From contig CAMVAF010000001.1 in the NCBI GenBank assembly GCA_947165365.1, forward strand, positions 17,133 to 81,132: a DNA stretch of 64,000 nucleotides, in the 5' to 3' direction. A model generated the notes under the pieces. That model saw only the letters and a program-made list of their open reading frames with translations, did no database searches and was not told the DNA's origin. Origin of the DNA: an uncultured Clostridia bacterium (GTDB lineage: Bacteria; Bacillota_I; Bacilli_A; RF39; UBA660). A program made the translations under genes and the position numbers. This document shows, one piece after another, positions 9,127-31,544 of the stretch. Numbering within the stretch: position 1 is the stretch's first letter; every line of letters begins with the position of its first letter.

Positions 9127-9290
9127 ACAAAAAAAATCCAGAAAATCGAAAGCCGGACAATAAAACCCGCGTCGCCACGAGGTGGGTGTCCATAATTAAT
9201 CATTAGGATCCTTAGGAACTCACACTAAGTATTCAACACAGATTAATGCTCCTGACTCCCGTAATATATTTTTAGTCGGTTTTATAACCA
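9127..9290 (-). promoter_or_regulatory. Structured 5' leader with terminator; candidate ydaO/yuaA-class (c-di-AMP) riboswitch
   Basis: This is a GC-rich island in AT-rich DNA. On the minus strand, a closing helix AUAAAACC (9279-9286) / GGUUUUAU (9160-9167) encloses ACGGGAGUCAGGAGCAUUAAUCUG ... GGACACCCACCUCGUGGCG. UCCGG-loop-CUGGA followed by U8 (9127-9158) comes next. The motifs resemble ACGG(A/G)G..., G..UUAAUC and CACCC...CUCGU..GC of ydaO aptamers as I recall them. Confidence 0.35.
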
Positions 9291-9389
9291 TGCACTTTCA
9301 TATCTTCTAGACACTTATAATATATCATATTTTTTTATTATTTTCTATATATTTTACAAAAAAACTTTAATTTGTCACAGATTTTACAT

Positions 9390-14799: not shown

Positions 14800-14873
14800 A
14801 GGGGATTAGTTAAATGGTATAATAATGGTCTCCAAAACCACTGTTGGGAGTTCGATTCTCTCATCCCCTGCCA
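14800..14873 (+). tRNA. trnW: tRNA-Trp (anticodon CCA)
   Basis: AGGGGAT...ATCCCCT acceptor stem, anticodon loop CUCCAAA (CCA at 14832-14834), T-arm GGGAG-TTCGATT-CTCTC and an encoded CCA end. It is 74 nt and closely resembles B. subtilis tRNA-Trp. Confidence 0.93.
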
Positions 14874-17742: not shown

Positions 17743-17795
17743 TTTTTCACCTACTATCTTTTATAAATTTATCATATTTTACTATATTTTTCAAG
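16775..17795. repeat. Segmental duplication, copy A (5' coding region + promoter region of the Big_2/MBL paralogs)
   Basis: It aligns with 19015..19995. The offset is exactly 2200 nt over about 17400-17742 / 19600-19942, with only scattered mismatches and an indel in the P/T linker. Confidence 0.85.
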
Positions 17796-17860
17796 ATTTT
17801 ATTATGAATAAAATACTAAAAAAATCTTTCTTTTACATTTTAGAAGAAAGATTTTTATTA

Positions 17861-19942
17861 TTATTTATAATTAGTACATACACCATTTGAATCAAATTTA
17901 TATGATTTGCCATCAATGGTTGTTGTTGTATTAGATACCATACAACCATTTCCTTTAAAGTAGAACCAATCGGTTCCACCAGACCAATTTAATTTTTTCC
18001 AACCAGTAACTGCATACTTGTCCTTATAATAATGCCAACAACTACCTGACCAATACCAACCATCATTAAAAGAACAATAAGTAGAATTTTGGATTTTAAC
18101 ATTAGATCCGCTTTGGTCTTTGATGGTATAACCATTACTATTAAATGTTGCAACAATAGCATCCGTAACTGAACCTGTTATATATATTTTGGCAACAGGA
18201 TTAACTGATACTGCATAACAAATACGATCTACCGCTTTAACAGAATTATTACTAACTACTAACACTTCTGGTTTCAATTTATCTAAAAATGTCCCACAAG
18301 TTGATGTTGAAATACTGTGATGACCAACTTTTAATATATTAACTTTTCCTATTTTTGCAGCCACTCTTCTTTCATCATTATCTTCAATATCTGATGCCAA
18401 TAACGCTTTTGAGCCATTTTTATGTGTGATTAATTGGATAATAGAATTTGAATTTTCTCCCCATGCAACACCACCCTTTAATTCATCACTACTTACACTT
18501 GCAGTATTCATAAGTTTTACCGTAAAATCATAAAAATTAAAACTCGTATCTTTATTTGTAATTTCTTTCATTTGTGCTCCTGCATTTTTCATTGCATTAT
18601 ATGCACGATTATAATACCCTCTATTATCCCAATCAGGATTATCACTATCATCAGTTGTTGTTACATATTTTCGATAATAATATTTAGTATTAGAATTAAC
18701 AAAAACATCAGCAATTTTTGGCATACCTCCTATATGATCAGAATGCGAATGGGTTCCAACTACAAATTCCAATTTTCCTTTACAACTACTTCCACTACAC
18801 CCAGTCAACTTTTTCAAATAGGTAACAACATGTTGAACAGAATTTGTAGAACTATCACTAGAATATGATGTCCCATCTTTATATGGATTTGATGAATCAA
18901 CAAGTCCAAAATGACCACAACTTTCTACAATAAAAGCATCAGAAGCACCTGTTCTCACAAAGTGAATTTTACTATCTTTACAACTTGAACTTGTAGTTTT
19001 AGCATTTACTGTTACTCTACATGTTGCCGTCTTTCCATTATTTGACTTTGCTGTTATTGTTACTGTTCCTTCTTTTATTCCTGTTACTTCTCCCTTACTA
19101 TTAACACTTGCAATACTTGTATTAGAACTTGTCCATGTTACTGTTTTATTACTTGCATTTGTGGGATTAATTGTTGCGGTTAATATTAATTTTTTACCTA
19201 CTTCAATAGATGAACTTGTATTATCTAAAGTTATTCCTGTTACATCTACTGTTATGTTTGTCGTTGTTTGTTTAGTTACCGTTACTTCACATGTTGCTGT
19301 CTTTCCATTATTTGATTTCGATGTTATTGTTGCAACTCCTTCTTTTACTCCTTTTATTAATCCATTACTTACTATTACGATACTTGTATCACTACTTGTC
19401 CATGTTACTGTTTTATTACTAGCATTAGAAGGATTTACTACAACATTTAATGATAATCCTTCATTTACTTTTATTGTAGCACTACTTGGTATACTTATTG
19501 ATGTTACCTCAACCGTTTGATTACTATTTGGTTTTGGTGTTGCCACTGGACTACTTGGTTTTACTGTAGGTGTTGTATTTGGTTTAGGAGTTACCACTGG
19601 ATTACTTGGTTTTGCTGTAGGTGTTGGAGATATAGTTGTTTCATCCTTTTCATATACTGCAGTTATTTTAATACTTCCATCTATTTCTTCATTAATATCA
19701 AATTCTTTTCCATTATATTCCCAATACTTAAACGTATATCCTTCTTTATATGGAGCTTCTGGTAAACTACTTATTTTATTCTCTTCTTTAGTTAATTTAA
19801 CCTCTTCATATACTTTATTATCTACCATATATGTTACACTAATATTATTACTTTTATTTCCTATATTAAAAGCAAAATATCCACTGACACCTATTAATAT
19901 TATTAATATAACACTTGATAATGCCCTTAAATTGTCTTTCAT
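17861..19942 (-). CDS. Paralogous surface protein: same N-terminus, 2x Big_2, MBL-fold domain, C-terminal cell-wall-binding (CW_binding-like) repeats
   Basis: The N-terminal ~110 aa are nearly identical to 15277..17742. MBL motif GTHSHSDHIGG. The C-terminus reads GWKKLNWSGGTDWFYFKGNGCMVSN..IDGKSYKFDSNGV. The ORF-track GTG start at 19951 overlaps the AGGTG RBS, so I prefer ATG 19942. Confidence 0.75.
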   Translation of the reverse strand: MKDNLRALSSVILIILIGVSGYFAFNIGNKSNNISVTYMVDNKVYEEVKLTKEENKISSLPEAPYKEGYTFKYWEYNGKEFDINEEIDGSIKITAVYEKDETTISPTPTAKPSNPVVTPKPNTTPTVKPSSPVATPKPNSNQTVEVTSISIPSSATIKVNEGLSLNVVVNPSNASNKTVTWTSSDTSIVIVSNGLIKGVKEGVATITSKSNNGKTATCEVTVTKQTTTNITVDVTGITLDNTSSSIEVGKKLILTATINPTNASNKTVTWTSSNTSIASVNSKGEVTGIKEGTVTITAKSNNGKTATCRVTVNAKTTSSSCKDSKIHFVRTGASDAFIVESCGHFGLVDSSNPYKDGTSYSSDSSTNSVQHVVTYLKKLTGCSGSSCKGKLEFVVGTHSHSDHIGGMPKIADVFVNSNTKYYYRKYVTTTDDSDNPDWDNRGYYNRAYNAMKNAGAQMKEITNKDTSFNFYDFTVKLMNTASVSSDELKGGVAWGENSNSIIQLITHKNGSKALLASDIEDNDERRVAAKIGKVNILKVGHHSISTSTCGTFLDKLKPEVLVVSNNSVKAVDRICYAVSVNPVAKIYITGSVTDAIVATFNSNGYTIKDQSGSNVKIQNSTYCSFNDGWYWSGSCWHYYKDKYAVTGWKKLNWSGGTDWFYFKGNGCMVSNTTTTIDGKSYKFDSNGVCTNYK

Positions 19943-19995
19943 ATTTATCACCTACTATCTTCTATAAATTTATCATATTTTACTTTGTTTTTCAA
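19015..19995. repeat. Segmental duplication, copy B
   Basis: See copy A. The upstream untranslated region (ACCTACTATCTT.TATAAATTTATCATATTTTACT) is also shared. Confidence 0.85.
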
Positions 19996-20121: not shown

Positions 20122-20150
20122 ATTTTAAAATGCTAGACTAATTTCTAGCA
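20122..20150 (-). terminator. Hairpin terminator overlapping the preA-like stop codon
   Basis: TGCTAGA-ctaatt-TCTAGCA (20131-20150), flanked by A/T runs on both sides, so possibly bidirectional. Confidence 0.5.
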
Positions 20151-21610
20151 TTTTTTTTTGAAATTCTTTTTTCAATAACACTTATAGCATTATTTGGACA
20201 AACTTGATTACATAAATGACAACCAACACATTTATTTCCGTCTAATTGTGGTTTTCTAGTCTCTAGTTCAAATTTTATGGCATCATGTCCACCATCTTTG
20301 CAAGAAATAAAACATCTTCCACAACCAACACATTTATCGTAATTAAATTTTGGAAACAAAATAGTATCTCTTTCTACCTTAGATGAATCAACAACACATT
20401 TTTTTGAAATACCAACAAAATCACTTACTTTATGAAAATTATTTTCTTTCATAAATATTTTCAACCCTAATATCAAATCATCTATTATCCTATAACCATA
20501 TTCCATAATAGCAGTTGTTAATTGTACATTAGTAGCACCTAATAGTAAAAATTCTATAGCATCTTTATATGTATAAATACCTCCTATTCCACTTATATCC
20601 ATATCATTTAAATGAGAATCTTTTGCCAGTTCCGTTACAAATCTTAATGCTATTGGCTTTACTGCTTTACCAGAATAACCTCCAATAAGAGTTTTACCAT
20701 TTACATCAGGTTCAGGAACTAAAGTATCAAAATTAATATTTGTAATACTTTTTATTGTATTAATTGCCGATATTCCATTAGCTCCACCTTTTTTTGCTGC
20801 TCTTGCTGGAATTCTAATATCAGTAATATTAGGAGTCATTTTAGCAATTATTGGTAAATTAGTTCCTCTTCTAGCAGCCATAGTATATTTTTTTACAACC
20901 AAAGGATCTTGTCCAATATCAGAACCTGTATTTTTTAATTCCATATTAGGACACGAAAAATTTAATTCAATAGCATCACAACCACTTTCAGTAACCATTT
21001 TTGCAATGGATTCCCATTCTTGTTCATTTCTTCCCATAATAGAAGCTATAATAATCCTATTAGGAAATTCTTTTTTTAGTTTTTTTAAACTGTTACAATC
21101 TTCTTCCAGTGTATGACTAGATAATTGTTCAATATTTTTAAAGCCCGCAAAAGAATTATCCCAATTTTTTAAAGTAGAAAATCTTGGCGATGCTTCATGG
21201 ATATCAAAGGGGCACATTGTTTTATAAACAATCCCAGCCCATCCTGCTTTTAAAGCTCTTTTACACATATCATATGTACTTCCAACTACTGAAGAAGAAA
21301 GCAAGAAAGGATTTATTAATTTAAGACCACAAAAAGTAGTTGTAATATCAACATCTAATTTTTTCTTTTTATATGATGTTTTAGCAACATTTTTTAATAT
21401 GTAATCAATATCTACTTTACAAGGACATTTAACACCACAATTATCATTTTTTTCTAAATAACTTTCCTTAATAAATAACTTTGCTCCTTTTAAATTATCA
21501 AATCTTAAAGCACGAATAATTCTTTCAGGATCCACATTTTTATATATTTTTTTACATGGTGCATCATAACAAAGAGCACATTTATGTATTTCTAAATCTA
21601 ATCGTTCCAT
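20138..21610 (-). CDS. preA: Dihydropyrimidine dehydrogenase PreA-like / DHODH-family flavoprotein with 2x[4Fe-4S] ferredoxin C-terminus
   Basis: DHOD-fold segments (LINPFLLSS, GCDAIELNFSCPN, GGYSGKAVKPIALR) are followed by CVGCGRCFISCKDGG and CVGCHLCNQVCP. Confidence 0.75.
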   Translation of the reverse strand: MERLDLEIHKCALCYDAPCKKIYKNVDPERIIRALRFDNLKGAKLFIKESYLEKNDNCGVKCPCKVDIDYILKNVAKTSYKKKKLDVDITTTFCGLKLINPFLLSSSVVGSTYDMCKRALKAGWAGIVYKTMCPFDIHEASPRFSTLKNWDNSFAGFKNIEQLSSHTLEEDCNSLKKLKKEFPNRIIIASIMGRNEQEWESIAKMVTESGCDAIELNFSCPNMELKNTGSDIGQDPLVVKKYTMAARRGTNLPIIAKMTPNITDIRIPARAAKKGGANGISAINTIKSITNINFDTLVPEPDVNGKTLIGGYSGKAVKPIALRFVTELAKDSHLNDMDISGIGGIYTYKDAIEFLLLGATNVQLTTAIMEYGYRIIDDLILGLKIFMKENNFHKVSDFVGISKKCVVDSSKVERDTILFPKFNYDKCVGCGRCFISCKDGGHDAIKFELETRKPQLDGNKCVGCHLCNQVCPNNAISVIEKRISKKNARN

Positions 21611-21847: not shown

Positions 21848-21895
21848 ATAAACAAAAATGAGAGATATCATTAATAAATATCTCTCTTCAGGGGG
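21848..21895. repeat. Hairpin core repeat, copy 1 (ATAAACAAAAATGAGAGATATCattaataaATATCTCTCTTCAGGGGG)
   Basis: This is one of three near-identical direct copies; the others are at 26618-26664 and 29285-29330. Read on the minus strand it is CCCCCUGAA, a 9-bp stem hairpin, then AUUUU(U)GUUU, which is a Rho-independent terminator shape. Confidence 0.9.
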
Positions 21896-21995
21896 TACCG
21901 TCCATGGCGTTTATTGACCCAACGCGGGATGTTAATGCATTTTAATACCTCATTTTTTTTCATTTCAAATCACTTTGCATCACTGAGGATTTTAG

Positions 21996-22067
21996 AAAAT
22001 TCGTATGTAAAATCGTATGTACTTGTAAATTCTTACAGCTTTATTTTTGTATGTAAATTCGTATGTA
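21996..22067. repeat. Four direct copies of (AAAW)TCGTATGTA
   Basis: TCGTATGTA at 22001-22009, 22013-22021 and 22059-22067, and TTGTATGTA at 22047-22055. Confidence 0.85.
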
Positions 22068-22075
22068 TTTTTGCA

Positions 22076-22101
22076 TAGAAAAAGACCACATTGATGTGAT
22101 C
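22076..22101 (-). terminator. Terminator of the MTase-MTase-DUF262/HNH-HEPN operon
   Basis: Minus strand: GAUCACA-UCAA-UGUGGUC followed by UUUUUCU. It overlaps the TAG stop at 22101-22103. Confidence 0.6.
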
Positions 22102-22973
22102 TAGTTATCTATAATTGACATTAAGAAATCTACTAATGTTACTCCAGAATTATAATACAAAATTGCATGACTTTTTTCTAATGTTTCTCTTTTGTCACCT
22201 ACACCATGAGAATCACTATTTGCATTTCGCATTTCAGCAATTGAATCAATTATTGTTTCTAATCCTGAAAGAATTTTCTTAATTCTAACATCCATTGCTT
22301 TTTCTATATGCATATTATAATTGCTTTTAAACTCACTATACTCTGATTTAATATCACCACTGAAATTTTTATTAATGTTTTTTCTTTTTAATCCTTCTAT
22401 TAATACTTCTTCAACCATCGTTCTAATTTTGGTAATCGTACTATCATAGTCACCAACTTCAATATCATGCCATGCTTTTTTATACATCTTATATGCATAA
22501 TTCTTATTTAGTTTTTCTATATTTGAGCTGCTCACTTTGACTGTTTCGTCATTAATTGAAGTTAAAGAAAAAATATTACCATCATATTCTAGAGATACAT
22601 TTTCAAACATTAAATATCCGTTTATTTGCATAATAAATGATGTTTTCGTTTCATTATGTTTATATATCACATCATCAGAATCTAAACCTTTCAAATCTCT
22701 TTTAAAATGTTTTAAATCCAGTAGTAAATTAAAAAATTCATTTATCTTATCTTTTTCAATACAATATTCTAAAACCCTTGTCATAAGTTCTTTACGGCTA
22801 TTTGAGTCACTATAATCAAGATTTATGCCTAATTGCCTACCAAACTCACATATTTCTTTACCAGTCATGTATGGCATCCTAAGGGGCATAAATCCAAGAT
22901 ATGGTCTTAATTCTATATCACCAATCATACAAGCTATAATGTCTTTATCAAGTAATTTGTACCAATTTTGCAT
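22101..22973 (-). CDS. HEPN-domain protein of the Abi_C (AbiJ-like abortive infection) type
   Basis: The C-terminus has IAEMRNANSDSHGVG, an R-x6-H HEPN motif as in Abi_C proteins. The start lies 2 nt after the stop of the upstream nuclease gene. Confidence 0.6.
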   Translation of the reverse strand: MQNWYKLLDKDIIACMIGDIELRPYLGFMPLRMPYMTGKEICEFGRQLGINLDYSDSNSRKELMTRVLEYCIEKDKINEFFNLLLDLKHFKRDLKGLDSDDVIYKHNETKTSFIMQINGYLMFENVSLEYDGNIFSLTSINDETVKVSSSNIEKLNKNYAYKMYKKAWHDIEVGDYDSTITKIRTMVEEVLIEGLKRKNINKNFSGDIKSEYSEFKSNYNMHIEKAMDVRIKKILSGLETIIDSIAEMRNANSDSHGVGDKRETLEKSHAILYYNSGVTLVDFLMSIIDN

Positions 22974-22975
22974 AA

Positions 22976-24073
22976 TTATATTCCTGATTTTCTTCTATTA
23001 CACTCTCTACATAACATCTGGCAATTTTCAGAACTTGTTTTACCTCCTGCATGCCATGGAGTTATATGATCAGCTTCCATCTCCTCTATTTCAAAATGCT
23101 TACCACACATAGAACATATTCCATTTTGTCTCTCATATGCCTCTCTTTTTTGATTATCTGTAAATGCTCTAATATTCAAATGTTTCTCTTGACCAGTAAT
23201 CAAATATAAATATATACCTTTTTTACTTGTTACATCATCGTCAGACATTAACTCTACTACTCTTTTTTCAAGTTCATCAGTATTATATTTTTGGTCTTTA
23301 TATTTATTATATAAAATACCCCAATCAATACCTTTCATTTCTCGGCGATAATTTGGAAATAATCTATTGACCCAATCAATAACAGATTGAAAATAAACCC
23401 ACAATTCATTTGCATCTTCATCTTCTTGGTGAGCAGCCATATATTCCTTGATTATAGGAACACCATCACGATCAATAATCCATTTCAATGCAGTTTCTAA
23501 ATATTCTTGTCTAATAGTAACACCTGTTATATATTTTTCTGCAATTTGATATGCTGGGCAACCTGTCTTGCTAAAATGCCTTTTTGCATCGTACAACCAT
23601 TTACCAACAAATTGAGAATTTAATAATTCTTGATTAGTTAATTTTTCCCCAGCGATATTTATGATATTAAACCAATCTAGTTTTTCGGAAGGTGTTCCCT
23701 CACAAATATAAATCATAAGTTTGTAATCAAGTATTTTATCTTGTAAATCTTTTGGAAGATTTCCAAAAAATTTATAATCAACAGAAAAATCTCCATTAAC
23801 ATATTGACAAATACTTAAAGTCCTTTGCTGACCATCAAGCAACTCATACATATCTCTATCTTTGTTTTTACTCCAATACATAACATTTAATGGAAAATTT
23901 TTATTAATTGTATCAATTACTGCCTTTCTTTTTTCATCATCATAAATAAACTCTCTTTGAAATGGTGGTCTAATATCAAGCTTACCATCATAACCAACAA
24001 CACCATTTTCTTGGTCATTTTTATAATTTTTTACAACTTCTCTTACAGGGATTTCATGTAATACTATTTTCAT
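22976..24073 (-). CDS. DUF262 (ParB-like/GmrS-type) + HNH endonuclease fusion
   Basis: The N-terminus has PPFQREFIYDDEKRKAVIDTI...ELLDGQQRTLSI (DUF262 DGQQR motif). The C-terminus has CSMCGKHFEIEEMEADHITPWHAGGKTSSENCQMLCRECNRRK (HNH with a CxxC...CxxC zinc site). Its ATG overlaps the TGA of the upstream MTase (ATGA at 24070-24073). Confidence 0.85.
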   Translation of the reverse strand: MKIVLHEIPVREVVKNYKNDQENGVVGYDGKLDIRPPFQREFIYDDEKRKAVIDTINKNFPLNVMYWSKNKDRDMYELLDGQQRTLSICQYVNGDFSVDYKFFGNLPKDLQDKILDYKLMIYICEGTPSEKLDWFNIINIAGEKLTNQELLNSQFVGKWLYDAKRHFSKTGCPAYQIAEKYITGVTIRQEYLETALKWIIDRDGVPIIKEYMAAHQEDEDANELWVYFQSVIDWVNRLFPNYRREMKGIDWGILYNKYKDQKYNTDELEKRVVELMSDDDVTSKKGIYLYLITGQEKHLNIRAFTDNQKREAYERQNGICSMCGKHFEIEEMEADHITPWHAGGKTSSENCQMLCRECNRRKSGI

Positions 24074-25206
24074 TTTTCTACCTCCACCAATTTCACAAAT
24101 ATTCTATGATATCCTATATTCACATATCCATCTTTATCAATAAAACATGGTTTTGATTTTTGCAAGTTTCCTTTAGTTCTAACTTTACCTGAATTATATA
24201 TATCCATGAATTTTTTTGAAAAAGGATAACTTTCTATTCCAAATATTTCTATTGCTGAACTGCAACCTAATATATCAAACTGTTCAGGGGTATACTTATC
24301 CATAAATGTTATTGGAACACCCATTACTCCATCATAATCTTTTGGGATATCGTTTGTTTTATCAACATTTATAGCATCATAATTGTCATATTTTGGATAT
24401 AAATCCGCATTATATCTTTTGGATAAAATTAATTTATCATGTCTTTCTTTATAATCCAAATTTGTCCACCATCTTATGCCTTTAACACGAATATACTTTT
24501 TCCCATCATCATCAATTCTAAAACCTGCTGCCTTTAATGGGTATGTATCTGGAACTCTAAATTCTCTATCACCAGAATGAATTGAAGCACCCATCCATAC
24601 CATATTGTTTTTTAGCAAAGGAAAAAAATCTTTATATGTTATTGCATTTTGATTTCCAATTATGAGAAATTTCTTATTATATTTATTAAGTAAAGAAACG
24701 AATTCTCTAAACAAACTAAATGGCGGATTTGTTACAACTATGTCGCTTTCTTTCAATAATTCAACACATTCATCACTTCTACAATCTCCATCTCCTTTTA
24801 GTAAAGATAATGTATTTTTATTATTTTTTAGCAAAAATTCAACATCACTTAAATCAACAGCACCATCATTATTTGAATCTGGTATTTCTGATATAACAAT
24901 CTTATATGCCTTTTTATTCGTTTTTGGAATTGAATAATTCAAATCAAACAAAGATAATTGTTCTCCCATTATAGGTGAATTATCATAACATGTGCATATA
25001 AGTTTTTTTAATTTCAAAGTGTTAAAATTTAATGCAAAATATTTGAAGAAATTACTTTCAAAGGGATCATCACAATTACATAAAACAATTTTATCTTTAA
25101 AATACTCTTTATAGTATCTTAATTCATTCTCAATATCTGTTAATTGTGTATAGAATTCATCATCTTTATTTGATTTTGCTTTAGTTAATTCTCTCTTTTT
25201 AGACAT
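24070..25206 (-). CDS. N6-adenine DNA methyltransferase, EcoRI-methylase family (M2)
   Basis: KDDEFYTQLTDIENELRYYKEYFKDKIVLCNCDDPFESNFFKYF and VVTNPPFSLFREF (NPPF motif IV) resemble M.EcoRI as I recall it. The ORF-track start is 25212. ATG 25206 has better spacing to the GAGGTAG RBS. Confidence 0.85.
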   Translation of the reverse strand: MSKKRELTKAKSNKDDEFYTQLTDIENELRYYKEYFKDKIVLCNCDDPFESNFFKYFALNFNTLKLKKLICTCYDNSPIMGEQLSLFDLNYSIPKTNKKAYKIVISEIPDSNNDGAVDLSDVEFLLKNNKNTLSLLKGDGDCRSDECVELLKESDIVVTNPPFSLFREFVSLLNKYNKKFLIIGNQNAITYKDFFPLLKNNMVWMGASIHSGDREFRVPDTYPLKAAGFRIDDDGKKYIRVKGIRWWTNLDYKERHDKLILSKRYNADLYPKYDNYDAINVDKTNDIPKDYDGVMGVPITFMDKYTPEQFDILGCSSAIEIFGIESYPFSKKFMDIYNSGKVRTKGNLQKSKPCFIDKDGYVNIGYHRIFVKLVEVEK

Positions 25207-26350
25207 TTTCATCTACCTCATTTCTTTTCCTTATTATAATAACTCTTTTATACGGAATTGATGCTATTCCTTTACTTGAAATACAACAAGTTAATCTATT
25301 TCCAATTCTAATACTTCCAGTATTACCTTGTTTATAATACAAATCAACGAATTCTTTAGTCATTCCTTTCCATCCATCTGGCAATATATTAGCTTCAGCA
25401 CTACCTACAATTTTAAATTGATTAGGATTATATTTATCTAAAAAAGTAATTGGAACAGCAATGTAATCAAAGTAATTATCTGGTATATCATTATATGTCT
25501 CAACATTAATACCTTTGCAATTTTGAAGTTTTGGATATTTCTCTTCACTATATTCTTTATATAAAATTAAATAATCATTATGTTTTTCAACTGGCAAAGA
25601 AGTAAGCCAACAAGAAGAGGCAACTCTTACAAATTTTTTACCATTTTCAATCCTATGAAATTTTGGAGTATTATCTGGAACAGAGAAATACATTCCTACA
25701 TTAAAATTTGTATATCCTGTTCTTATTTTATCTTCCATGAACATTTTAAATACATCTTTATATGTAAGTGCATTAATATTACTGATTAACACAAAATCCT
25801 TATTGTATTGATTAATGAGTGATATAAATTCTCTAAATAGACTAAATGGTGGATTTGTTACAACAATATCCGATTCTTTTAAGAGTTCAACACATTCATC
25901 ACTTCTAAAATCACCATTTCCTTTTAATAAAGACAAACTATTATTTTCGTTCTCCTCAATAATAGATTTAATATCGATCAAATCAATTGCACCATCTTTA
26001 TTAAAATCATGTACACTACATATTTCAATTTTGTATGGTTTCTTTGAATCTTCTTTTTTTAAAACCAATCCTTTAACATCAAACAAAGATAATTGTTCAG
26101 TAATAATTGGTGAACCAGCATAGCAAGTACATATCATTTTTTTTAATCCAAGTGCATTAAAATTTAATGCAAAATACTTAAAAAAGTTGCTCTCATATGG
26201 GTCATCACAATTGCAAAATACTACTTTATTTTTAAAACAATTTTTATAATTACAAAGTTCTTTTTCAATATCTTCTAATCTTGTATAAAATTCATCCTTT
26301 TTAGTTTTTTTTGCTTCTGTGAGCATTTTATTAGTATTGTTATTTGCCAT
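25199..26350 (-). CDS. N6-adenine DNA methyltransferase, EcoRI-methylase family (M1), paralog of M2
   Basis: KKDEFYTRLEDIEKELCNYKNCFKNKVVFCNCDDPYESNFFKYF and VVTNPPFSLFREF. The ORF-track start is 26380. ATG 26350 (MANNNTNKM) follows a TAGGAGTAG RBS. Confidence 0.85.
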   Translation of the reverse strand: MANNNTNKMLTEAKKTKKDEFYTRLEDIEKELCNYKNCFKNKVVFCNCDDPYESNFFKYFALNFNALGLKKMICTCYAGSPIITEQLSLFDVKGLVLKKEDSKKPYKIEICSVHDFNKDGAIDLIDIKSIIEENENNSLSLLKGNGDFRSDECVELLKESDIVVTNPPFSLFREFISLINQYNKDFVLISNINALTYKDVFKMFMEDKIRTGYTNFNVGMYFSVPDNTPKFHRIENGKKFVRVASSCWLTSLPVEKHNDYLILYKEYSEEKYPKLQNCKGINVETYNDIPDNYFDYIAVPITFLDKYNPNQFKIVGSAEANILPDGWKGMTKEFVDLYYKQGNTGSIRIGNRLTCCISSKGIASIPYKRVIIIRKRNEVDENV

Positions 26351-26515
26351 TTTTATCACTACTCCTAAAAGAATTTTCAATTTCTGATAATATTATAACA
26401 TATTTTTTCAATTTCTTTGACTTCTATTTATATTTTTTGTTCTTATCGCACTGAAGAGTGCAAGAAATGTATTTTTTCTTTATTTTTCATTGGTTTTAGA
26501 AAGTCAAAATAAAAT

Positions 26516-26561
26516 TACATACGATTTACATACGAAAAAAATCGTATAAAATTCGTATGTA
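26516..26561. repeat. TCGTATGTA motif cluster in palindromic arrangement
   Basis: TACATACGA (reverse orientation) at 26516-26524 and 26527-26535, TCGTATA at 26542-26548 and TCGTATGTA at 26553-26561. Confidence 0.85.
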
Positions 26562-26572
26562 AACGCACTTTT

Positions 26573-26601
26573 TACAAACTTCAAATCTTCGCAAACCCTT
26601 G
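26573..26601. repeat. Conserved module right-end segment (TACAAA..CAAATCTTCGcAAACCcTTG), copy 1
   Basis: It matches 29237-29267 (TACAAA....GCAAATCTTCGgAAACCgTTG). Both lie 16-18 nt to the left of a hairpin core copy. Confidence 0.75.
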
Positions 26602-26617
26602 ATTTTATTGACTTTTA

Positions 26618-26664
26618 ATAAACAAAATGAGAGATATCGTTTATAAATATCTCTCTTCAGGGGG
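26618..26664. repeat. Hairpin core repeat, copy 2
   Basis: ATAAACAAAATGAGAGATATCgtttataaATATCTCTCTTCAGGGGG. Confidence 0.9.
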
Positions 26665-26769
26665 CGCTTTATTTATGTACACTAAATATTTAAAGTCCAA
26701 TAAAATCAACATTTTTCAAACAATATAATTTATAAAAGTTTAACAATATTTATACAATTTTACAAAAGT

Positions 26770-26789
26770 TGTGACCTAACTGTGACCTA
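26770..26789. repeat. Two direct copies of TGTGACCTA
   Basis: 26770-26778 and 26781-26789. A third copy is at 29218-29226. Confidence 0.8.
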
Positions 26790-26797
26790 GAAATATA

Positions 26798-28039
26798 TCA
26801 CAGTATTTTTTTAATATTATCTACTTTAATTACACCAGTGTTATTATTAATATAATTAATTATAGCTACATTACTGCAATTGTTTTTTAAATATAACTCG
26901 TAAACATCTAATAATGATTTAGTATCAATTATTAAAGTGTCTCTTTTTCTTGCCATTTCATCTTGCATTATATGTATTTCATTTCTTTCGTTAATATCTC
27001 TTGTTCTTTCATAGTTTATAATTAATAGTTTTCTAATTTCTTCTGTACTTCCCTCTTCTTGTAATTTATCTAAATATTTTGCATAATGTTCATCTAGCTG
27101 AGAAATAAATTCATTTTTTACATTACTAGTAACACCTTTTATTTCTCCAATATAAGTTATTTCATCTTTTTTAAAATTAAAATCTTCTTTTTTTTCATCA
27201 ATAAACTCTTTTAATGAAATATCAAAAATATCTTCAAGAATCTCGAATACGACCTTTACCAGTTCATCTGAATTTGTATATAAAATACTTTTATAATGTA
27301 AATTATTATCTAGTTTAATATTAGCCTTATCTATTTTTTCTTTTTCCTTTTTTATTTGTTCCTTTGATTTCTCCACATTTTTCATTTGCTCTTCGTCATC
27401 ATAAAACATATATTTTCTTACCCAATCAGGAACTTCATTTTTGTCTTTAATAATACCAATTAATCGCAAATATTCAAATAGTAACACATAACTATCATTT
27501 TTTATCAACTCTAAACTCGTAATTAATATTCTTTGTTTTTTTAAAGTTGTAATAGTTTCGCTAGTACTATGTGTTATTTCTTCGTAAGTACCATCATTTT
27601 TAAAGCCAAATGCAGAATTGCCAAACGTATCATTAATTTTTGTTTCATTATTTTCGTAAAATATTTTAATGCTTTGAATTGGAAGTAATACTTTTAATAT
27701 ATCTATAAATACGGGTAAATAGTTTTTTAGTTGATAATATTTGGTATTTTTATAGGTTGTACATGTAAACTCAATATTTTGTGGGAGACAAACCAAAATA
27801 TCGGCTTTTTTACTATTTTCAATCATTTCCCTAATACTACAAAAATCATTAATTAATGTTATATTCTTATTTGGATTATCAAAATTGGTATTTTTTAATA
27901 AATTTTCATATGACAAATCTATTATAACCAATTTATAGTTATCAAACGAATTCGGTGTATTATATGTAGTAATGTCAACATAATCTTTGTATATTTCTAG
28001 TTTCTTATACGAACTAGTAATTATTTGTATCGTATTCAT
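26798..28039 (-). CDS. Uncharacterised 413-aa protein: unknown N-domain, coiled coil, possible C-terminal PD-(D/E)xK nuclease fold
   Basis: This is a long clean ORF. A K/E-rich coiled coil spans about residues 212-245. EDFNFKKDEITYIGEIKG (D286 ... E299-x-K301) followed by Q314 fits the D...ExK...Q pattern of restriction-endonuclease-like folds. I cannot assign a family. Confidence 0.5.
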   Translation of the reverse strand: MNTIQIITSSYKKLEIYKDYVDITTYNTPNSFDNYKLVIIDLSYENLLKNTNFDNPNKNITLINDFCSIREMIENSKKADILVCLPQNIEFTCTTYKNTKYYQLKNYLPVFIDILKVLLPIQSIKIFYENNETKINDTFGNSAFGFKNDGTYEEITHSTSETITTLKKQRILITSLELIKNDSYVLLFEYLRLIGIIKDKNEVPDWVRKYMFYDDEEQMKNVEKSKEQIKKEKEKIDKANIKLDNNLHYKSILYTNSDELVKVVFEILEDIFDISLKEFIDEKKEDFNFKKDEITYIGEIKGVTSNVKNEFISQLDEHYAKYLDKLQEEGSTEEIRKLLIINYERTRDINERNEIHIMQDEMARKRDTLIIDTKSLLDVYELYLKNNCSNVAIINYINNNTGVIKVDNIKKIL

Positions 28040-28128
28040 TTAAATTTCACCTCTTAATTCAATAAAGATTACTATTAAAATTTGAATATTTTAATAAAAA
28101 TTTATATATACTATTAAAGACAGAGTTA

Positions 28129-28157
28129 TTGACAAATTCTAAAATATTTGTTATATT
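28129..28157 (+). promoter_or_regulatory. Sigma-A-type promoter of the plus-strand small RNA candidate
   Basis: TTGACA (28129-28134), a 17-nt spacer, then TATATT (28152-28157). Confidence 0.5.
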
Positions 28158-28163
28158 AACTAA

Positions 28164-28236
28164 TGTCAAAGCAATTAAGTTTGCTTGGGGTTCGTGGTAT
28201 CGCGGACGGTAAAAACTGGTTTATCCAGTTTTTATT
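28164..28236 (+). ncRNA. Candidate ~70-nt small RNA between the 413-aa gene and the DUF3800 gene
   Basis: A consensus promoter lies upstream. Hairpin AAGCAA-uuaagu-UUGCUU is followed by the GC-rich hairpin GUUCG-uggguaucg-like loop-CGGAC within GGGGUUCGUGGUAUCGCGGACGGUA. Terminator AAAACUGG-uuuau-CCAGUUUUU then overlaps the DUF3800 stop codon. Confidence 0.4.
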
Positions 28237-29089
28237 TTTGCTCTGGAGGGAATAATTTTATTCCCTTATTTATATAATTTGGATATCCTGCAATCTTATC
28301 TTCAAATGTTAAAAATGCTTTATCTTTGATATCTCTTTTAACATATTTATGTATTGGATATGAGAATAAATCAGTTATTTCTAATCCTACATATGTTGAA
28401 CTATATTCTTCATTCCACTTCGGATTAAAATATACTCCATCAATTTTTGTTTTAAGTTCTCTTGAACTTATTTTTTTGGTTCCAGTTGTATTAATAACCT
28501 TACTAATATGATCTAATAGCTCTCTATCTTCATCTTTACCTCTTGCTTCAAGCATAATAACGCCTTTTTTATTGTTCTTTGTTTCATAAATATATCTTTC
28601 AAGTAAAAAGTCAAATGCCACATTATAAACATTATGAGTATATCCTCTTTTTAAATATTCGTAAAGATTAATGCTTATAGATATTACTTTACACTGAATA
28701 TCCTTCATTACATTAGATAAATCTACCATAAACTCATTATAATCAATTACATTGTCATTAAACGCACCATCATGTTTTCTAATATCACGTGAATGAAAAC
28801 ATACTGCACGATTACTTTTTGATTTAGAATCATAAAACATACCATCTTTCCAATATTTATTCTTTAATAACTCAATTGACTGCTTTGCATGTAAATAATT
28901 GGATTTTGTAAAAATACAGCCTGTAATCGTGAAATATTTATCATCTTCTGATAATTCTTTATCATTGGATATTTGCTTTAATACATACGTTAAATTACTA
29001 CTACTACCATTTTCATCAATACACATTGCATAATCTATATCTTTTCGCATTAATAATATTTTTGTAGGTTTATCATACCACGTTGACAT
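28232..29089 (-). CDS. DUF3800-family protein
   Basis: AMCIDENGSS (N-terminal DExG-type motif), CFHSRDIRKH, LEARGKDEDRELL and GLEITDLFSYPI match the conserved blocks I recall for DUF3800. Confidence 0.65.
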   Translation of the reverse strand: MSTWYDKPTKILLMRKDIDYAMCIDENGSSSNLTYVLKQISNDKELSEDDKYFTITGCIFTKSNYLHAKQSIELLKNKYWKDGMFYDSKSKSNRAVCFHSRDIRKHDGAFNDNVIDYNEFMVDLSNVMKDIQCKVISISINLYEYLKRGYTHNVYNVAFDFLLERYIYETKNNKKGVIMLEARGKDEDRELLDHISKVINTTGTKKISSRELKTKIDGVYFNPKWNEEYSSTYVGLEITDLFSYPIHKYVKRDIKDKAFLTFEDKIAGYPNYINKGIKLFPPEQK

Positions 29090-29217
29090 AAAATCACCTC
29101 TGTCATGTATAACAATTAATAAGATTATTTTATCACATAATAAAAGAAAACTCTATCATAATTGATAAAATTTACAGGTATTATTATATTTAATTTATAT
29201 TACAGGCAAAACCTTGC

Positions 29218-29233
29218 TGTGACCTAGCGGTCA
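29218..29233. repeat. TGTGACCTA copy embedded in the palindrome TGACC-tag-cGGTCA
   Basis: 29218-29226 matches the two copies at 26770-26789. It lies in the promoter region upstream of the DUF3800 gene. Confidence 0.75.
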
Positions 29234-29236
29234 TAT

Positions 29237-29267
29237 TACAAAAAAAGCAAATCTTCGGAAACCGTTG
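29237..29267. repeat. Conserved module right-end segment, copy 2
   Basis: See 26573-26601. Confidence 0.75.
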
Positions 29268-29282
29268 CTACATAAGGGTTTC

Positions 29283-29390
29283 AGACAAACAAAATGAGAG
29301 ATATCGTTTATAATATCTCTCTTCAGGGGGTTTTGGTTGAATACACCTTCCTAATATTTGAAGGTGCCTGTATGATATCTTCTACCATAC
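29283..29390 (-). ncRNA. Candidate ~105-nt small transcript downstream of recG that ends in hairpin core copy 3
   Basis: Minus-strand promoter: TTGACT (29420-29425), a 17-nt spacer, then TATGAT (29397-29402). The transcript has hairpins GUAUG..CAUAC and CACCUUC-aaauauuag-GAAGGUG, then CCCCCUGAA and the core terminator. Confidence 0.3.
29285..29330. repeat. Hairpin core repeat, copy 3
   Basis: ACAAACAAAATGAGAGATATCgtttataATATCTCTCTTCAGGGGG. Confidence 0.9.
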
Positions 29391-29454
29391 AAATAAATCA
29401 TAATATAATTTTTTCTATAAGTCAATTATTTTTTTAAAATTTTACAATATTTTT

Positions 29455-31452
29455 TTAATCAGTGTCAACCATCTCTAAAATTTTATTTTTTATTATCATA
29501 TTTTCTGGTTCATTTATCTTTAAAAATTCCTTTGCATCAACATTAGCATATTCTAGTATTTTAAAGTCTTCTCTTAAGTTTGCAATCTTAAAATACATAT
29601 CACCACTCTGTCTTGTACCAAATAAATCTCCACTACCTCTTAATTTAAAATCTTCTTCGGCTATTTTAAAGCCATCATTTGTTTCCTCTAATATTTTAAG
29701 TCTTTCGGTTTCTGATTTACTAATTAAAATACAAGTTGATTTTATATTACCTCGTCCTACTCTTCCTCTTAACTGATGTAGTGTTGATAATCCAAACATA
29801 TTAGCATCAAAAATAATCATCATACTAGCATTACTAACATCAACACCTACTTCAATAACAGTAGTACTAATTAAAATATTAATTTCATTATTTTTAAATT
29901 TATCCATAATATTATCTTTTTCTTTATTTGACATTTTACCATGCAACATATCTACTTTAACATTAACTTTACTAAAGGCTTTTTTAAACTCATCTTTTAA
30001 ATTAATAACACTAGTTAAATCACTTTCACCTTCATTTTCAATTAAAGGAGATACGACATATATTTGATGATTTTCTTTTAATTCTTCATACATTAAATTT
30101 AATACTTCACTTATCTGATCTTCTTTTCTAATTATTGTTTCTACAGGTATTCTTCCTTTTGGCATTTCTTTAATAATCGAAATATCCATATCACCATAAA
30201 TAGTTAAAGCAAAAGTACGAGGTATTGGTGTTGCACTCATATATAGTACATCAGGTGTAATCCCTTTATTTTTTAATAAAGCTCTTTGATTTACTCCAAA
30301 TCTATGTTGTTCATCAGTAACAACTAACCCTAAATTATAATATTTAACACTTTCTTGAATAATAGCATGTGTACCTATTAAAATGTCTATTTTATTATTA
30401 ATTAAATCACTATATATTTCTTCTTTTTCTTTTTTAGTTAAAGATCCAATAAGTAATCTTACAGTACATTTACCATCTAATATTTTAGATATATTATTAA
30501 AGTGTTGGGTTGCTAATATTTCTGTTGGTGCCATTAAAGCACTTTGATAACCTGATAATTTATTAAAATACATTGCAGCAATTGATACAATCGTTTTTCC
30601 ACTACCAACATCACCTTGAAGTAAGCGATTCATCATCTTATTAGAATTCATATCACTAACAATTTCTTCAATAACTTTCTCTTGATCATTTGTTAATTTA
30701 AATGGTAATAATTGATAAAAAGAATTAATATCATTTTTCGTAATTTTTCTTTCTATACCTAATTCTTTTTTCTTAATACTTTTTAAATAATTAATTTTTA
30801 CCATAAAACAAAATAATTCTTCATATTTCATTCTTTTAATCATTTCAGAAAGTTTTGTTTCATTAGGTGGATTATGAATAATATTCAAAGCAATATTTTT
30901 TTTAATATCAAATGGTGGATATTTATCTTTTAAATAATCTGGAATATAATCCATAATATCTTTACCATAATCCATAAGAGCATTATTAATATAGGTATGA
31001 ATATTTTTATTACTTAAACCACTTGTTAAATGATATACTGGTTCAATCTTTGTTTCATTATTTAATATTCCAAATTTAATATCACTAGCTGTTAAAATAT
31101 TTTTTTCTTTTTCATATTTACCAATAACAATAATTCTTGTTCCTACTTTTAAATTAGGTTTCATAAAAGCTCTATTAAAAATAGTTATTCCAACTACTCC
31201 ATCTTTATATGATAATCTAAAATTCATTTTATTAAGTTTAGCATTAAATCTTAATACAAGAGGAACACTATCAACTACACCATCAATTATTACACGATCT
31301 TCTATTGTTGCTTCGGATAAATCACTTCTTTTTAAAATATCATATCTTGATGGATAATATGTTAATAAATCTTCTATCGTATTTATTTCTAATTTATTTA
31401 ATAATAATTCTGATTTTGGACCTATTCCTTTAACATCTTTTAATTCTCTCAT
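29455..31452 (-). CDS. recG: ATP-dependent DNA helicase RecG
   Basis: Wedge/OB N-terminal domain, helicase motifs LLQGDVGSGKT, VTDEQHRFG and HGKM, and TTVIEVGVDV. The ORF-track start is 31473. ATG 31452 follows a GGAGTAG RBS. Confidence 0.92.
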   Translation of the reverse strand: MRELKDVKGIGPKSELLLNKLEINTIEDLLTYYPSRYDILKRSDLSEATIEDRVIIDGVVDSVPLVLRFNAKLNKMNFRLSYKDGVVGITIFNRAFMKPNLKVGTRIIVIGKYEKEKNILTASDIKFGILNNETKIEPVYHLTSGLSNKNIHTYINNALMDYGKDIMDYIPDYLKDKYPPFDIKKNIALNIIHNPPNETKLSEMIKRMKYEELFCFMVKINYLKSIKKKELGIERKITKNDINSFYQLLPFKLTNDQEKVIEEIVSDMNSNKMMNRLLQGDVGSGKTIVSIAAMYFNKLSGYQSALMAPTEILATQHFNNISKILDGKCTVRLLIGSLTKKEKEEIYSDLINNKIDILIGTHAIIQESVKYYNLGLVVTDEQHRFGVNQRALLKNKGITPDVLYMSATPIPRTFALTIYGDMDISIIKEMPKGRIPVETIIRKEDQISEVLNLMYEELKENHQIYVVSPLIENEGESDLTSVINLKDEFKKAFSKVNVKVDMLHGKMSNKEKDNIMDKFKNNEINILISTTVIEVGVDVSNASMMIIFDANMFGLSTLHQLRGRVGRGNIKSTCILISKSETERLKILEETNDGFKIAEEDFKLRGSGDLFGTRQSGDMYFKIANLREDFKILEYANVDAKEFLKINEPENMIIKNKILEMVDTD

Positions 31453-31544
31453 ATCTACTCCAAATATAAGCATATTATATCAAAAATTATCTTAAAAGTA
31501 AATTTAGTTGACAATAATCTTTAATCTATTTTTCTTTTTCACAA

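Follow-up and report, generated by a model that had tools for sequence, protein, structure and literature searches.

Cis-mobilizable elements (CIMEs) have lost their integration and transfer genes but have kept attL and attR, and they come to lie in tandem through successive site-specific integrations (PMC5704250). Lambda-type integrase systems are found at the 3' ends of transfer RNA (tRNA) and transfer-messenger RNA (tmRNA) genes, as exemplified by phage mv4 at tRNA-Ser (10.1101/2023.11.06.565760), and in Prochlorococcus the elements known as tycheposons stack at tRNA genes (10.1101/2020.12.28.424599). We analyzed a stretch of 64,000 nucleotides from an uncultured Clostridia bacterium (assembly GCA_947165365.1, contig CAMVAF010000001.1, positions 17,133 to 81,132), hereafter referred to as the window, in which the interval between the genes recG and preA contains three direct copies of a hairpin-containing core of about 47 bp and two modules that lie between these copies. 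The best explanation, in which we have good confidence, is that the recG-preA interval is a lambda-type integration hotspot in which the 3' end of a small RNA (sRNA) gene serves as attB and two integrase-less modules have accreted; site-specific recombination of this type is an established route to genomic islands.

As in CIMEs and in the accretion of the ICESt1/ICESt3 type in streptococci, the elements at this site keep both attL and attR, have no integration or transfer genes, and form tandem arrays with their relatives at the 3' end of a conserved gene (PMC5704250). Neither window module contains integration or transfer genes and both retain the two att sites; because they do so in tandem, they match the structural part of the CIME definition, and in this structural sense they are CIME-like derivatives that have kept the att sites and the arm repeats and lack the integrase. 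The two systems differ in their targets, which are fda or a tRNA gene for CIMEs and an sRNA terminator here. Additionally, the modules at this site are 0.7-4.7 kb long and carry mostly restriction-modification, abortive-infection or unknown genes; no conjugation or mobilization genes were seen, integrase-bearing relatives included; many arm-motif classes are combined with one core; and an origin by decay of integrative and conjugative or integrative and mobilizable elements is hypothetical. A first-pass annotation, made from the letters of the window alone, could not place the array in any described element family. This no longer holds, as the organization of the att sites into a core and arm-type repeats is classical and the CIME structure fits.

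The locus shares with lambda-type systems, such as P4-like islands and mv4, an N-terminal arm-binding domain in the integrase, a core with arm repeats on both arms, and the apparent restoration of an RNA-gene 3' end by the element's own copy. In contrast to the tRNA and tmRNA targets of those systems, the target here is an undescribed sRNA; furthermore, the window elements lack an integrase, and dozens of arm-motif classes surround one core. Tycheposons are likewise cargo elements with a tyrosine integrase that insert repeatedly at one RNA-gene site, where newcomers push older elements deeper and where degenerate remnants and partial copies of the target persist. They differ in their tRNA targets, in their marine cyanobacterial hosts and in the replication modules that many of them carry, and their remnants have no clear boundaries, whereas the integrase-less modules described here are sharply bounded with both arms kept. 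The composite islands of staphylococcal cassette chromosome (SCC) elements at orfX/rlmH in staphylococci also consist of tandem cassettes, between which the integration site, located at the 3' end of a conserved gene, is directly repeated, and some of these cassettes (pseudo-SCC) carry no recombinase genes. However, the recombinases of SCC elements (Ccr) are large serine recombinases, the target is a protein-coding gene, and arm-type sites are absent. Integron arrays and clusters of attC sites lacking integron integrases (CALINs) resemble the locus in that their cassettes are compact and mostly share one orientation, in that a hairpin-forming site comes after each cassette, and in that an array may lack a nearby integrase. 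In integrons, IntI acts on folded single-stranded attC and the cassettes are usually promoterless, whereas the att sites here, with core and arms, would be read as double-stranded DNA by a lambda-type integrase, and the examined modules appear to have their own promoters. What is new at this locus is the undescribed sRNA, a hotspot rich in unknown cargo, and a natural series of arm motifs and integrases.

The core pattern TGAGAGATAT-N(3-12)-ATATCTCTC was found three times in the 64-kb window (21859-21886, 26628-26655 and 29295-29321, with a loop spacing of N(8-9)), each time on the plus strand; shuffled sequences are expected to contain none. The full core, AA(A)CAAAA(A)TGAGAGATATC-loop-ATATCTCTCTTCAGGGGG, was present as the following direct copies:

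21848-21895: core copy 1, putative att site that closes the array on the preA side, with the loop CATTAATAA that is commonest in the population
26618-26664: core copy 2, putative att junction between module 1 and module 2
29285-29330: core copy 3, putative att junction adjoining the sRNA body, and the present sRNA terminator

The three cores are 95-100% identical direct repeats that vary only in the A-run and the loop (CATTAATAA, CGTTTATAA and CGTTTATA). Their stems form perfect 9-10-bp helices, and all three score as intrinsic terminators on the minus strand. A segment with the sequence CAAATCTTCG(C/G)AAACC(C/G)TTG is located to the left of cores 2 and 3 (26582-26601 and 29248-29267) with 90% identity, and the DNA to the right of each core shows no mutual similarity. 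The first-pass annotation had described three hairpin cores in the same orientation with differences confined to the loop and the A-run, unrelated right flanks, and a common left segment at copies 2 and 3; sequence reading and the pattern search agreed with it on each of these points. Both modules are thus bounded by direct core repeats, as lambda-type elements are by attL and attR. An independent metagenome contig (L001) crosses core 2 and 96 nt of module 2, so the assembly is supported there, and a second contig (L002) breaks at core 1, as expected for a repeat. Core 1 is probably the original sRNA terminator, which was displaced.

Each window module carries, on both arms, short repeats that are distinct from the core:

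22001-22067: left (P') arm of module 1, with TCGTATGTA at 22001, 22013 and 22059 and TTGTATGTA at about 22047, starting 106 nt from the core; putative arm-type sites
26516-26601: right (P) arm of module 1, with TACATACGA at 26516 and 26527, TCGTATGTA at 26553 and the conserved segment CAAATCTTCGCAAACCCTTG at 26582-26601
26770-26789: left (P') arm of module 2, with a pair of TGTGACCTA at 26770 and 26781, which is 105 and 116 nt from core 2
29218-29267: right (P) arm of module 2, with a single TGTGACCTA at 29218 and the conserved segment CAAATCTTCGGAAACCGTTG at 29248-29267

In the right arm of module 1, TCGTATGTA is inverted at 26516 and 26527 and direct at 26553. The distances of about 100 nt and about 55 nt from the cores that had been given earlier for these repeat families were correct. 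We also observed that the right arm of module 2 (29218-29233) contains one TGTGACCTA followed by the palindrome TGACCTAGCGGTCA, and that the related locus L048 has two tandem copies.

Related loci were found in two scans. A scan of one genome per species (185,579 genomes) revealed nine loci, all of them in rumen metagenome-assembled genomes that are mostly labeled Erysipelotrichaceae; six adjoin recG, one adjoins preA, and the remaining two (L005 and L011) have neither gene and show island-type flanks. A metagenome scan revealed 66 further loci, of which seven contain more than one core (two or three), and all 66 shared the same flank grammar. At 29 loci, recG is followed about 160 nt downstream by the core, and RecG there is 64-93% identical to that of the window, which indicates that the core is locus-specific and not a dispersed repeat. 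An empty site with a single core and alternative cargo between cores had both been named by the first-pass annotation as things to look for. The former is apparent in L032, where nadE, its terminator, the core, the sRNA and recG were found without a P arm, and the latter amounts to about 160 cargo clusters, a count in which some chromosomal genes to the left of the islands may be included. The core was found only at this kind of locus, which disposes of the dispersed repetitive extragenic palindromic (REP)-like element that the same annotation had raised as a possible refutation.

The flanks at the core fall into 35 left and 14 right classes that are freely combined. Cargo and arms also reassort, such that given arms were found around different cargo, and given restriction-modification genes between different arms. 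In particular, L052 (178-5700) contains TCGTATGTA arms around an unrelated 842-aa gene, and the restriction-modification genes of its neighboring module are 77% identical to those of window module 1. The cargo open reading frames (ORFs) lie on the sRNA/recG strand in 181 of 206 cases, again possibly with some chromosomal genes left of the islands among them, and all 19 ORFs of the integrase modules lie on the opposite strand.

The arrangement of the arm repeats was conserved among these loci. Left of nearly every core, the usual order is two direct 9-11-mers, 30-45 nt, a CGCAAACCCTTG-like segment, 10-25 nt and the core. In nine of the 11 complete modules, both window modules included, the module's own motif is paired at offsets of about +105 and +116 nt relative to the left core, and 55-100 nt ahead of the right core it recurs in one to three copies. 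Of the two exceptions, L071 has different motifs on its arms, and in L034 the two ends share only 9-mers adjoining the motif. When all sites are taken together, offsets of 103-108 nt and spacings of 11-12 nt predominate, and at least 12 distinct arm motifs were present. Three integrases that adjoin different motifs (GTGAAATGTAA, TGTAACCTAAA and TGTTAGGTAAA) show an overall identity of 84.5-86%, which falls to 66-69% in the N-terminal 59 residues and is 87-93% elsewhere, and in two integrases with the same motif the N-terminal part is 98% identical. Additionally, AAGAGGTAAA adjoins an integrase in L020, and in L033 and L040 it recurs in both arms of modules that lack an integrase. Both the geometry of the short repeats and their co-variation with the integrase are those expected of arm-type sites.

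The integrase itself was located beside the core in relatives of the window. Locus L006 contains a 389-aa ORF (368 aa from the conserved start) that ends about 100 nt left of the core and comprises an Arm-DNA-bind_4 domain, a SAM-like domain (Phage_int_SAM_3) and a Phage_integrase domain, and homologues occupy the same position beside the core in eight loci. The family has 1911 members at E<=1e-20, human-gut contigs included, and matches PHROG 1 (integrase); the integrase beside the core scored 37 bits against the integron-integrase model (cutoff 265) and 66 bits against XerC/XerD (cutoffs of about 330). The absence of an integrase from the array, as previously noted from the sequence, was upheld for the relevant family throughout the window (hmmsearch, best E = 0.049). 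IMG/VR viral contigs contained no match to the core pattern and gave no sign of a phage origin. Inside the integrase-bearing element of L006, eight tandem copies of AAAAAGGAC were found at 2040-2110, and a 90-aa protein encoded at 3029-3301 matches replication-initiator and DnaD-like helix-turn-helix (HTH) proteins in PHROG. These repeats and the 90-aa protein resemble iterons and an initiator, and the excised element may replicate.

A complete integrase-bearing element was revealed by L088, in which three tandem elements lie next to the sRNA and recG. The first of these is a module whose arms contain ATGTC(A/G)CCTAAA. The 10.5-kb element that sits between two other modules ends in a core variant on either side, has pairs of the TTAATGTAA type in both arms, and contains LlaJI-type restriction-modification genes together with an integrase module. 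An integrase-less module of the same locus encodes an SLFN-like helicase, a 254-aa protein and a MazG-like protein between GTATCTAA-type repeats on both arms. The view that integrase units are one-ended, which was suggested by L006, L037, L056, L049, L080, L084 and L085, where neither a second core nor a second arm pair was present in the available DNA, was overturned by L088. A 20-nt box with the sequence AATATTACTAT(T/A)TT(T/C)CGAAC was also observed in L006 (1787-1806), L037, L056 (225) and L049 (3234); it adjoins arm pairs in L012, L018, L031, L034, L047, L065-L067 and L071 and is absent from the window. Homology between elements stops at the box, which divides the att/integrase backbone from the cargo, with the cargo promoter directly after it. 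We considered the AATATTACTAT..CGAAC box as a left att site and dropped this assignment, as each end of the L088 element has a core and an arm pair. The box more probably marks where the backbone meets the cargo, and it may be a hotspot of cargo exchange.

The target of integration was examined in the DNA next to recG, where the following features were predicted:

29285-29391, minus strand: predicted sRNA of about 105 nt with two covarying stem-loops, the invariant single-stranded GUAUUCAACCAAAACCCCCUGAA and the core hairpin as terminator; its 5' end was placed from the promoter
29397-29425, minus strand: sRNA promoter (TTGACT, 17 nt, TATGAT), the position of which is kept in 26 related loci

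The approximately 110 nt between core 3 and recG contain the promoter, after which come the two stem-loops, GUAUUCAACCAAAACCCCCUGAA and finally the core hairpin and a U-tract; the promoter consensus among relatives is TTGAC(T/A)-17-TAT(G/T)AT. The stem-loop sequences vary between genomes with pairing retained. In an alignment of 18 sequences (A2), compensatory changes were present in 13 of 26 pairs and 96.6% of the cells were paired; none of 500 shuffles reached the observed values, and when the partners were slid by 1-3 columns, pairing was 30-59%. The window sRNA has a minimum free energy of -33.1 kcal/mol (z = -4.87). It belongs to no Rfam family, as a search of the window at gathering thresholds returned only tRNA-Trp and 6S RNA and a permissive search of 29200-29500 returned only chance-level matches (E = 1.7 and 3.9). 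Where the site is apparently unoccupied, the next gene is convergent, an arrangement that speaks against a 5' leader. The core hairpin is accordingly predicted from these sequence features to be the terminator of a stand-alone, independently transcribed sRNA, and this sRNA is previously undescribed. With its strong covariation and its absence from Rfam, it is a candidate regulator in poorly studied bacteria.

Several other observations concern the sRNA. Many genomes from the rumen and gut retain it downstream of recG, and its invariant C-rich single-stranded stretch, CAACCAAAACCCCCUGAA, could pair with ribosome-binding sites of the GGGGG type. A recurrent left-end class, represented by the right flanks of the cores in L008, L024, L027, L041, L047, L050, L053 and L077, contains a plus-strand terminator, AAAAGTACGATTTTTCGTACTTTTT. 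This terminator is preceded by GTGTATT(C/T)AA(C/T)AAG, which resembles the GUGUAUUCAAC stretch of the sRNA in the opposite orientation.

Comparison of the cores between lineages also indicated where recombination would take place. The hairpin stems are replaced in other lineages by GAGAGTGAT/ATCACTCTC, GACGGAAC/GTTCCGTC, ATTCCCTC/GAGGGAAT, CCCG/CGGG or GAGACGTC/GACGCCTC, and one L088 module has two different flanking hairpins and cores that share only CAGGGGG. Across lineages, (T/G)CAGGGGG is constant, as is the break in homology that directly follows it. As the stem changes while the CAGGGGG edge remains constant, the hairpin is not the recognition determinant, and strand exchange most likely occurs in or next to CAGGGGG. 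For the same reason, we ruled out that the hairpin is the core-binding inverted repeat of the integrase with the loop as overlap: stems and loops are swapped wholesale, and CAGGGGG and the break point are fixed. A symmetrical core, CCCCCTGAA-hairpin-TTCAGGGGG, was found at L072 (3144-3180) in another gene context; it matches the core pattern on both strands and possibly arose from a head-to-head event or from an inversion between cores.

In the mechanism that we propose, attB would be the 3' end of the sRNA gene downstream of recG, consisting of the motif CCCCCUGAA and the terminator hairpin, and a large family of lambda-type (heterobivalent) tyrosine integrases would insert circular elements there. 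Every element would bring its own sRNA 3' end, such that the terminator is restored and one core remains at each junction, and the hairpin would travel with the P arm of each element as the replacement terminator of the sRNA. Repeated insertion, or accretion, would then yield the order core 1, module 1, core 2, module 2, core 3 and sRNA. The 9-11-mers would be arm-type sites that are read by the N-terminal domain of the integrase, with one motif per element class. The window modules, which may still be mobilizable, would move only within a composite element or through a cognate integrase acting in trans.

The first-pass annotation had offered three readings of the array. Tandem site-specific integration into a terminator or sRNA 3' end by elements mobilized in trans, which corresponds to the hotspot proposed here, is supported by the apparently empty site, the alternative cargo and the locus-specific core. 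Another of its readings was homologous recombination, that is, a RecA-dependent hotspot in which the 47-bp terminator, with recG and the sRNA, acts as a portable flank and no site-specific recombinase takes part. The near-identity of the directly repeated cores, the reassortment of flanks at the core and the missing integrase in the window modules would all be accommodated by this reading, and the reassortment of cargo and arms inside modules needs some other recombination process. Nevertheless, 47 bp is close to the minimum length at which RecA recombination is efficient, homology stops at the same base after GGGGG in every class, and the cores of one L088 module have only CAGGGGG in common; furthermore, a dedicated integrase adjoins the core in relatives, and matched repeat pairs at fixed arm distances would have no role. 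We therefore regard homologous recombination as an improbable origin of the array and as at most secondary, although it may explain secondary events such as deletion between cores and cargo exchange. The remaining reading was hairpin-guided single-strand recombination, by IntI at attC or by an HUH enzyme as in IS200/IS605, with the array being CALIN-like. Direct hairpin repeats do delimit co-oriented cargo here, and the array has no recombinase, but the associated integrase has an arm-binding domain, falls in PHROG 1 and scores far below the integron and XerC/XerD cutoffs. The perfect 9-10-bp stems lack the extrahelical bases and the R and L boxes of attC, the stem is free to change next to a fixed CAGGGGG, and promoter-like sequences were seen by eye upstream of cargo in several modules, the window included. 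No HUH or IntI gene was found in the annotated loci and, in particular, no IS200/IS605 HUH (TnpA) transposase in the window modules or the annotated related loci, in which annotation covered part of the ORFs. This reading is rejected as highly improbable.

Two further explanations were weighed against the integration hotspot. In the first, the modules would be Xer-dependent, in the manner of integrative mobile elements exploiting Xer (IMEX) or of pdif modules, with the 28-bp sequence TGAGAGATATC-GTTTAT-AAATATCTCTC serving as a dif-like 11-6-11 site for the host XerC/XerD. Copies 1 and 2 are exactly 28 bp long with 11-bp imperfect inverted arms, and recombinase-less modules would be expected, but copy 3 measures 27 bp, stem and spacer vary freely in relatives, the locus shows no terminus-type switch in GC skew, and the dedicated integrase is of a non-Xer type with arm sites, as its 66 bits against XerC/XerD indicate; we give this explanation very little credence. 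In the second, the core would be a generic dispersed terminator or REP-like repeat that has no role in mobility and has been reused by coincidence. Its only attraction is that the three cores score as terminators. All three window copies are confined to this interval, the core was found at nine loci in 185,579 species genomes, six beside recG and one beside preA, and the 66 metagenome loci share one flank grammar, which makes coincidental reuse barely credible.

Several results weigh against a lambda-type integration hotspot with mobilizable modules. A complete integrase-bearing element was found in L088 only, and no second core was present within 10 kb in the integrase-bearing loci L080, L084 and L085, the elements of which may simply be longer. 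None of the integrases in the fetched loci had TCGTATGTA or TGTGACCTA arms, and the mobilization in trans of the two window modules is therefore putative. The right arm of module 2, with one of the two copies present in L048, suggests partial or early decay of the att arm, and the L071 module has different motifs on its arms (GTGAAATGT-type and TTGCCACCTAA). No contig contained a circular (attP) junction or an excised form; three apparent attP-like junctions, in which the same motif lay on both sides of one core, proved to be artefacts caused by cores located at the ends of contigs. No genes for a relaxase, a capsid or conjugation that would account for transfer between cells were seen, and the sRNA is a prediction from sequence.

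A broader reading can be put forward only tentatively, as one that we doubt more than we believe. In it, the loci would form a population-wide cassette system in which dozens of compact integrase-less classes with defense or unknown cargo, each with its own arm-motif 'address' and with both arms under selection, are moved in trans by lambda-type integrases with co-diversified N-terminal domains and dock at one conserved C-rich sRNA, at its 3' end. If true, this would be a functional analogue of the integron that operates on double-stranded DNA, and cassette traffic could affect the sRNA, the terminator of which would be replaced at each insertion. The integration hotspot proposed here provides a testable mechanism for a hotspot of defense islands in uncultured rumen and gut Firmicutes (Erysipelotrichaceae-like), as a defined att site, an integrase family and matched arm motifs predict which integrase moves which module. 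Many motifs on one core also constitute a natural system for studying the arm specificity of heterobivalent integrases, which is relevant to orthogonal integration tools.

The genes of the recG-preA interval, all of which are on the minus strand, are as follows:

20138-21610, minus strand: preA, NAD-dependent dihydropyrimidine dehydrogenase subunit (NCBIfam NF006183, 544 bits, cutoff 335; Pfam DHO_dh and Fer4), a chromosomal gene on the far side of the island
22101-22973, minus strand: AbiJ-like abortive-infection protein, module 1 (PADLOC AbiJ, 8.3e-58; Pfam Abi_C)
22976-24073, minus strand: type II restriction endonuclease with GmrSD_N and HNH domains, module 1 (PADLOC REase_II, 1.9e-150; Pfam)
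24070-25212 and 25199-26380, minus strand: two tandem paralogous EcoRI-like adenine methyltransferases, module 1 (Pfam EcoRI_methylase, 3.5e-142 and 5.6e-117; PADLOC MTase_II)
26798-28039, minus strand: 413-aa protein, function unassigned, module 2
28232-29089, minus strand: DUF3800 protein, module 2 (Pfam DUF3800, 5.3e-08; no PADLOC match)
29455-31473, minus strand: recG helicase (Pfam RecG_wedge, DEAD, Helicase_C and RecG_dom3_C), a conserved chromosomal neighbor of the sRNA/att site

The first-pass annotation had taken all of the cargo to be defense-related. This description suits module 1, with its methyltransferases, restriction enzyme and AbiJ, but not module 2, in which neither the DUF3800 protein nor the 413-aa protein has a defense match; the latter had no match in Pfam, PADLOC, NCBIfam, PHROGs or PDB sequences. 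It had also assigned the termination of each module to the core. Although all three cores score as minus-strand terminators, the AbiJ gene has its own terminator at 22083-22102, and core 1 is thus not needed to terminate module 1. A promoter-like TGTTATAAT was identified by eye upstream of the first methyltransferase gene of the window. Exact-protein look-ups of RecG (672-aa and 665-aa versions) gave no match, and those of the PreA, DUF3800 and 413-aa proteins returned only contigs of the same strain (L001, L002, L078 and L079), without strain polymorphism.

The cargo identified elsewhere included BstXI-type, Type ISP and LlaJI-type restriction-modification systems, McrBC, AbiTii, Abi_2 and a HEPN protein. 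Most of the tested cargo proteins had no family match, and a search with PADLOC and Pfam on ten cargo proteins of complete modules revealed only one HEPN domain and one HTH protein. With most of the scanned cargo clusters in this class, the site could be mined for new defense genes, as other hotspots have been. In L080 (11390-12170), a gene for a 42-aa peptide and one for an Rce1-like (CPBP) membrane protease lie directly beside the core; this pair looks like bacteriocin/immunity cargo, which would mean that the hotspot is not limited to anti-phage genes.

The two EcoRI-like methyltransferases of module 1 show about 51% protein identity, and their DNA identity reaches 76-78% across two stretches of about 200 bp. 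The pairing of two methylases with a GmrSD_N and HNH nuclease is an unusual two-methylase type II arrangement. Outside the interval, 6S RNA (9131-9316, minus strand) and tRNA-Trp (14800-14873, plus strand) were the sole Rfam and ARAGORN matches in the window. We also observed two adjacent paralogous surface-type proteins of 821 and 696 aa at 15277-19951 on the minus strand, which contain Big_2 repeats and a metallo-beta-lactamase domain.

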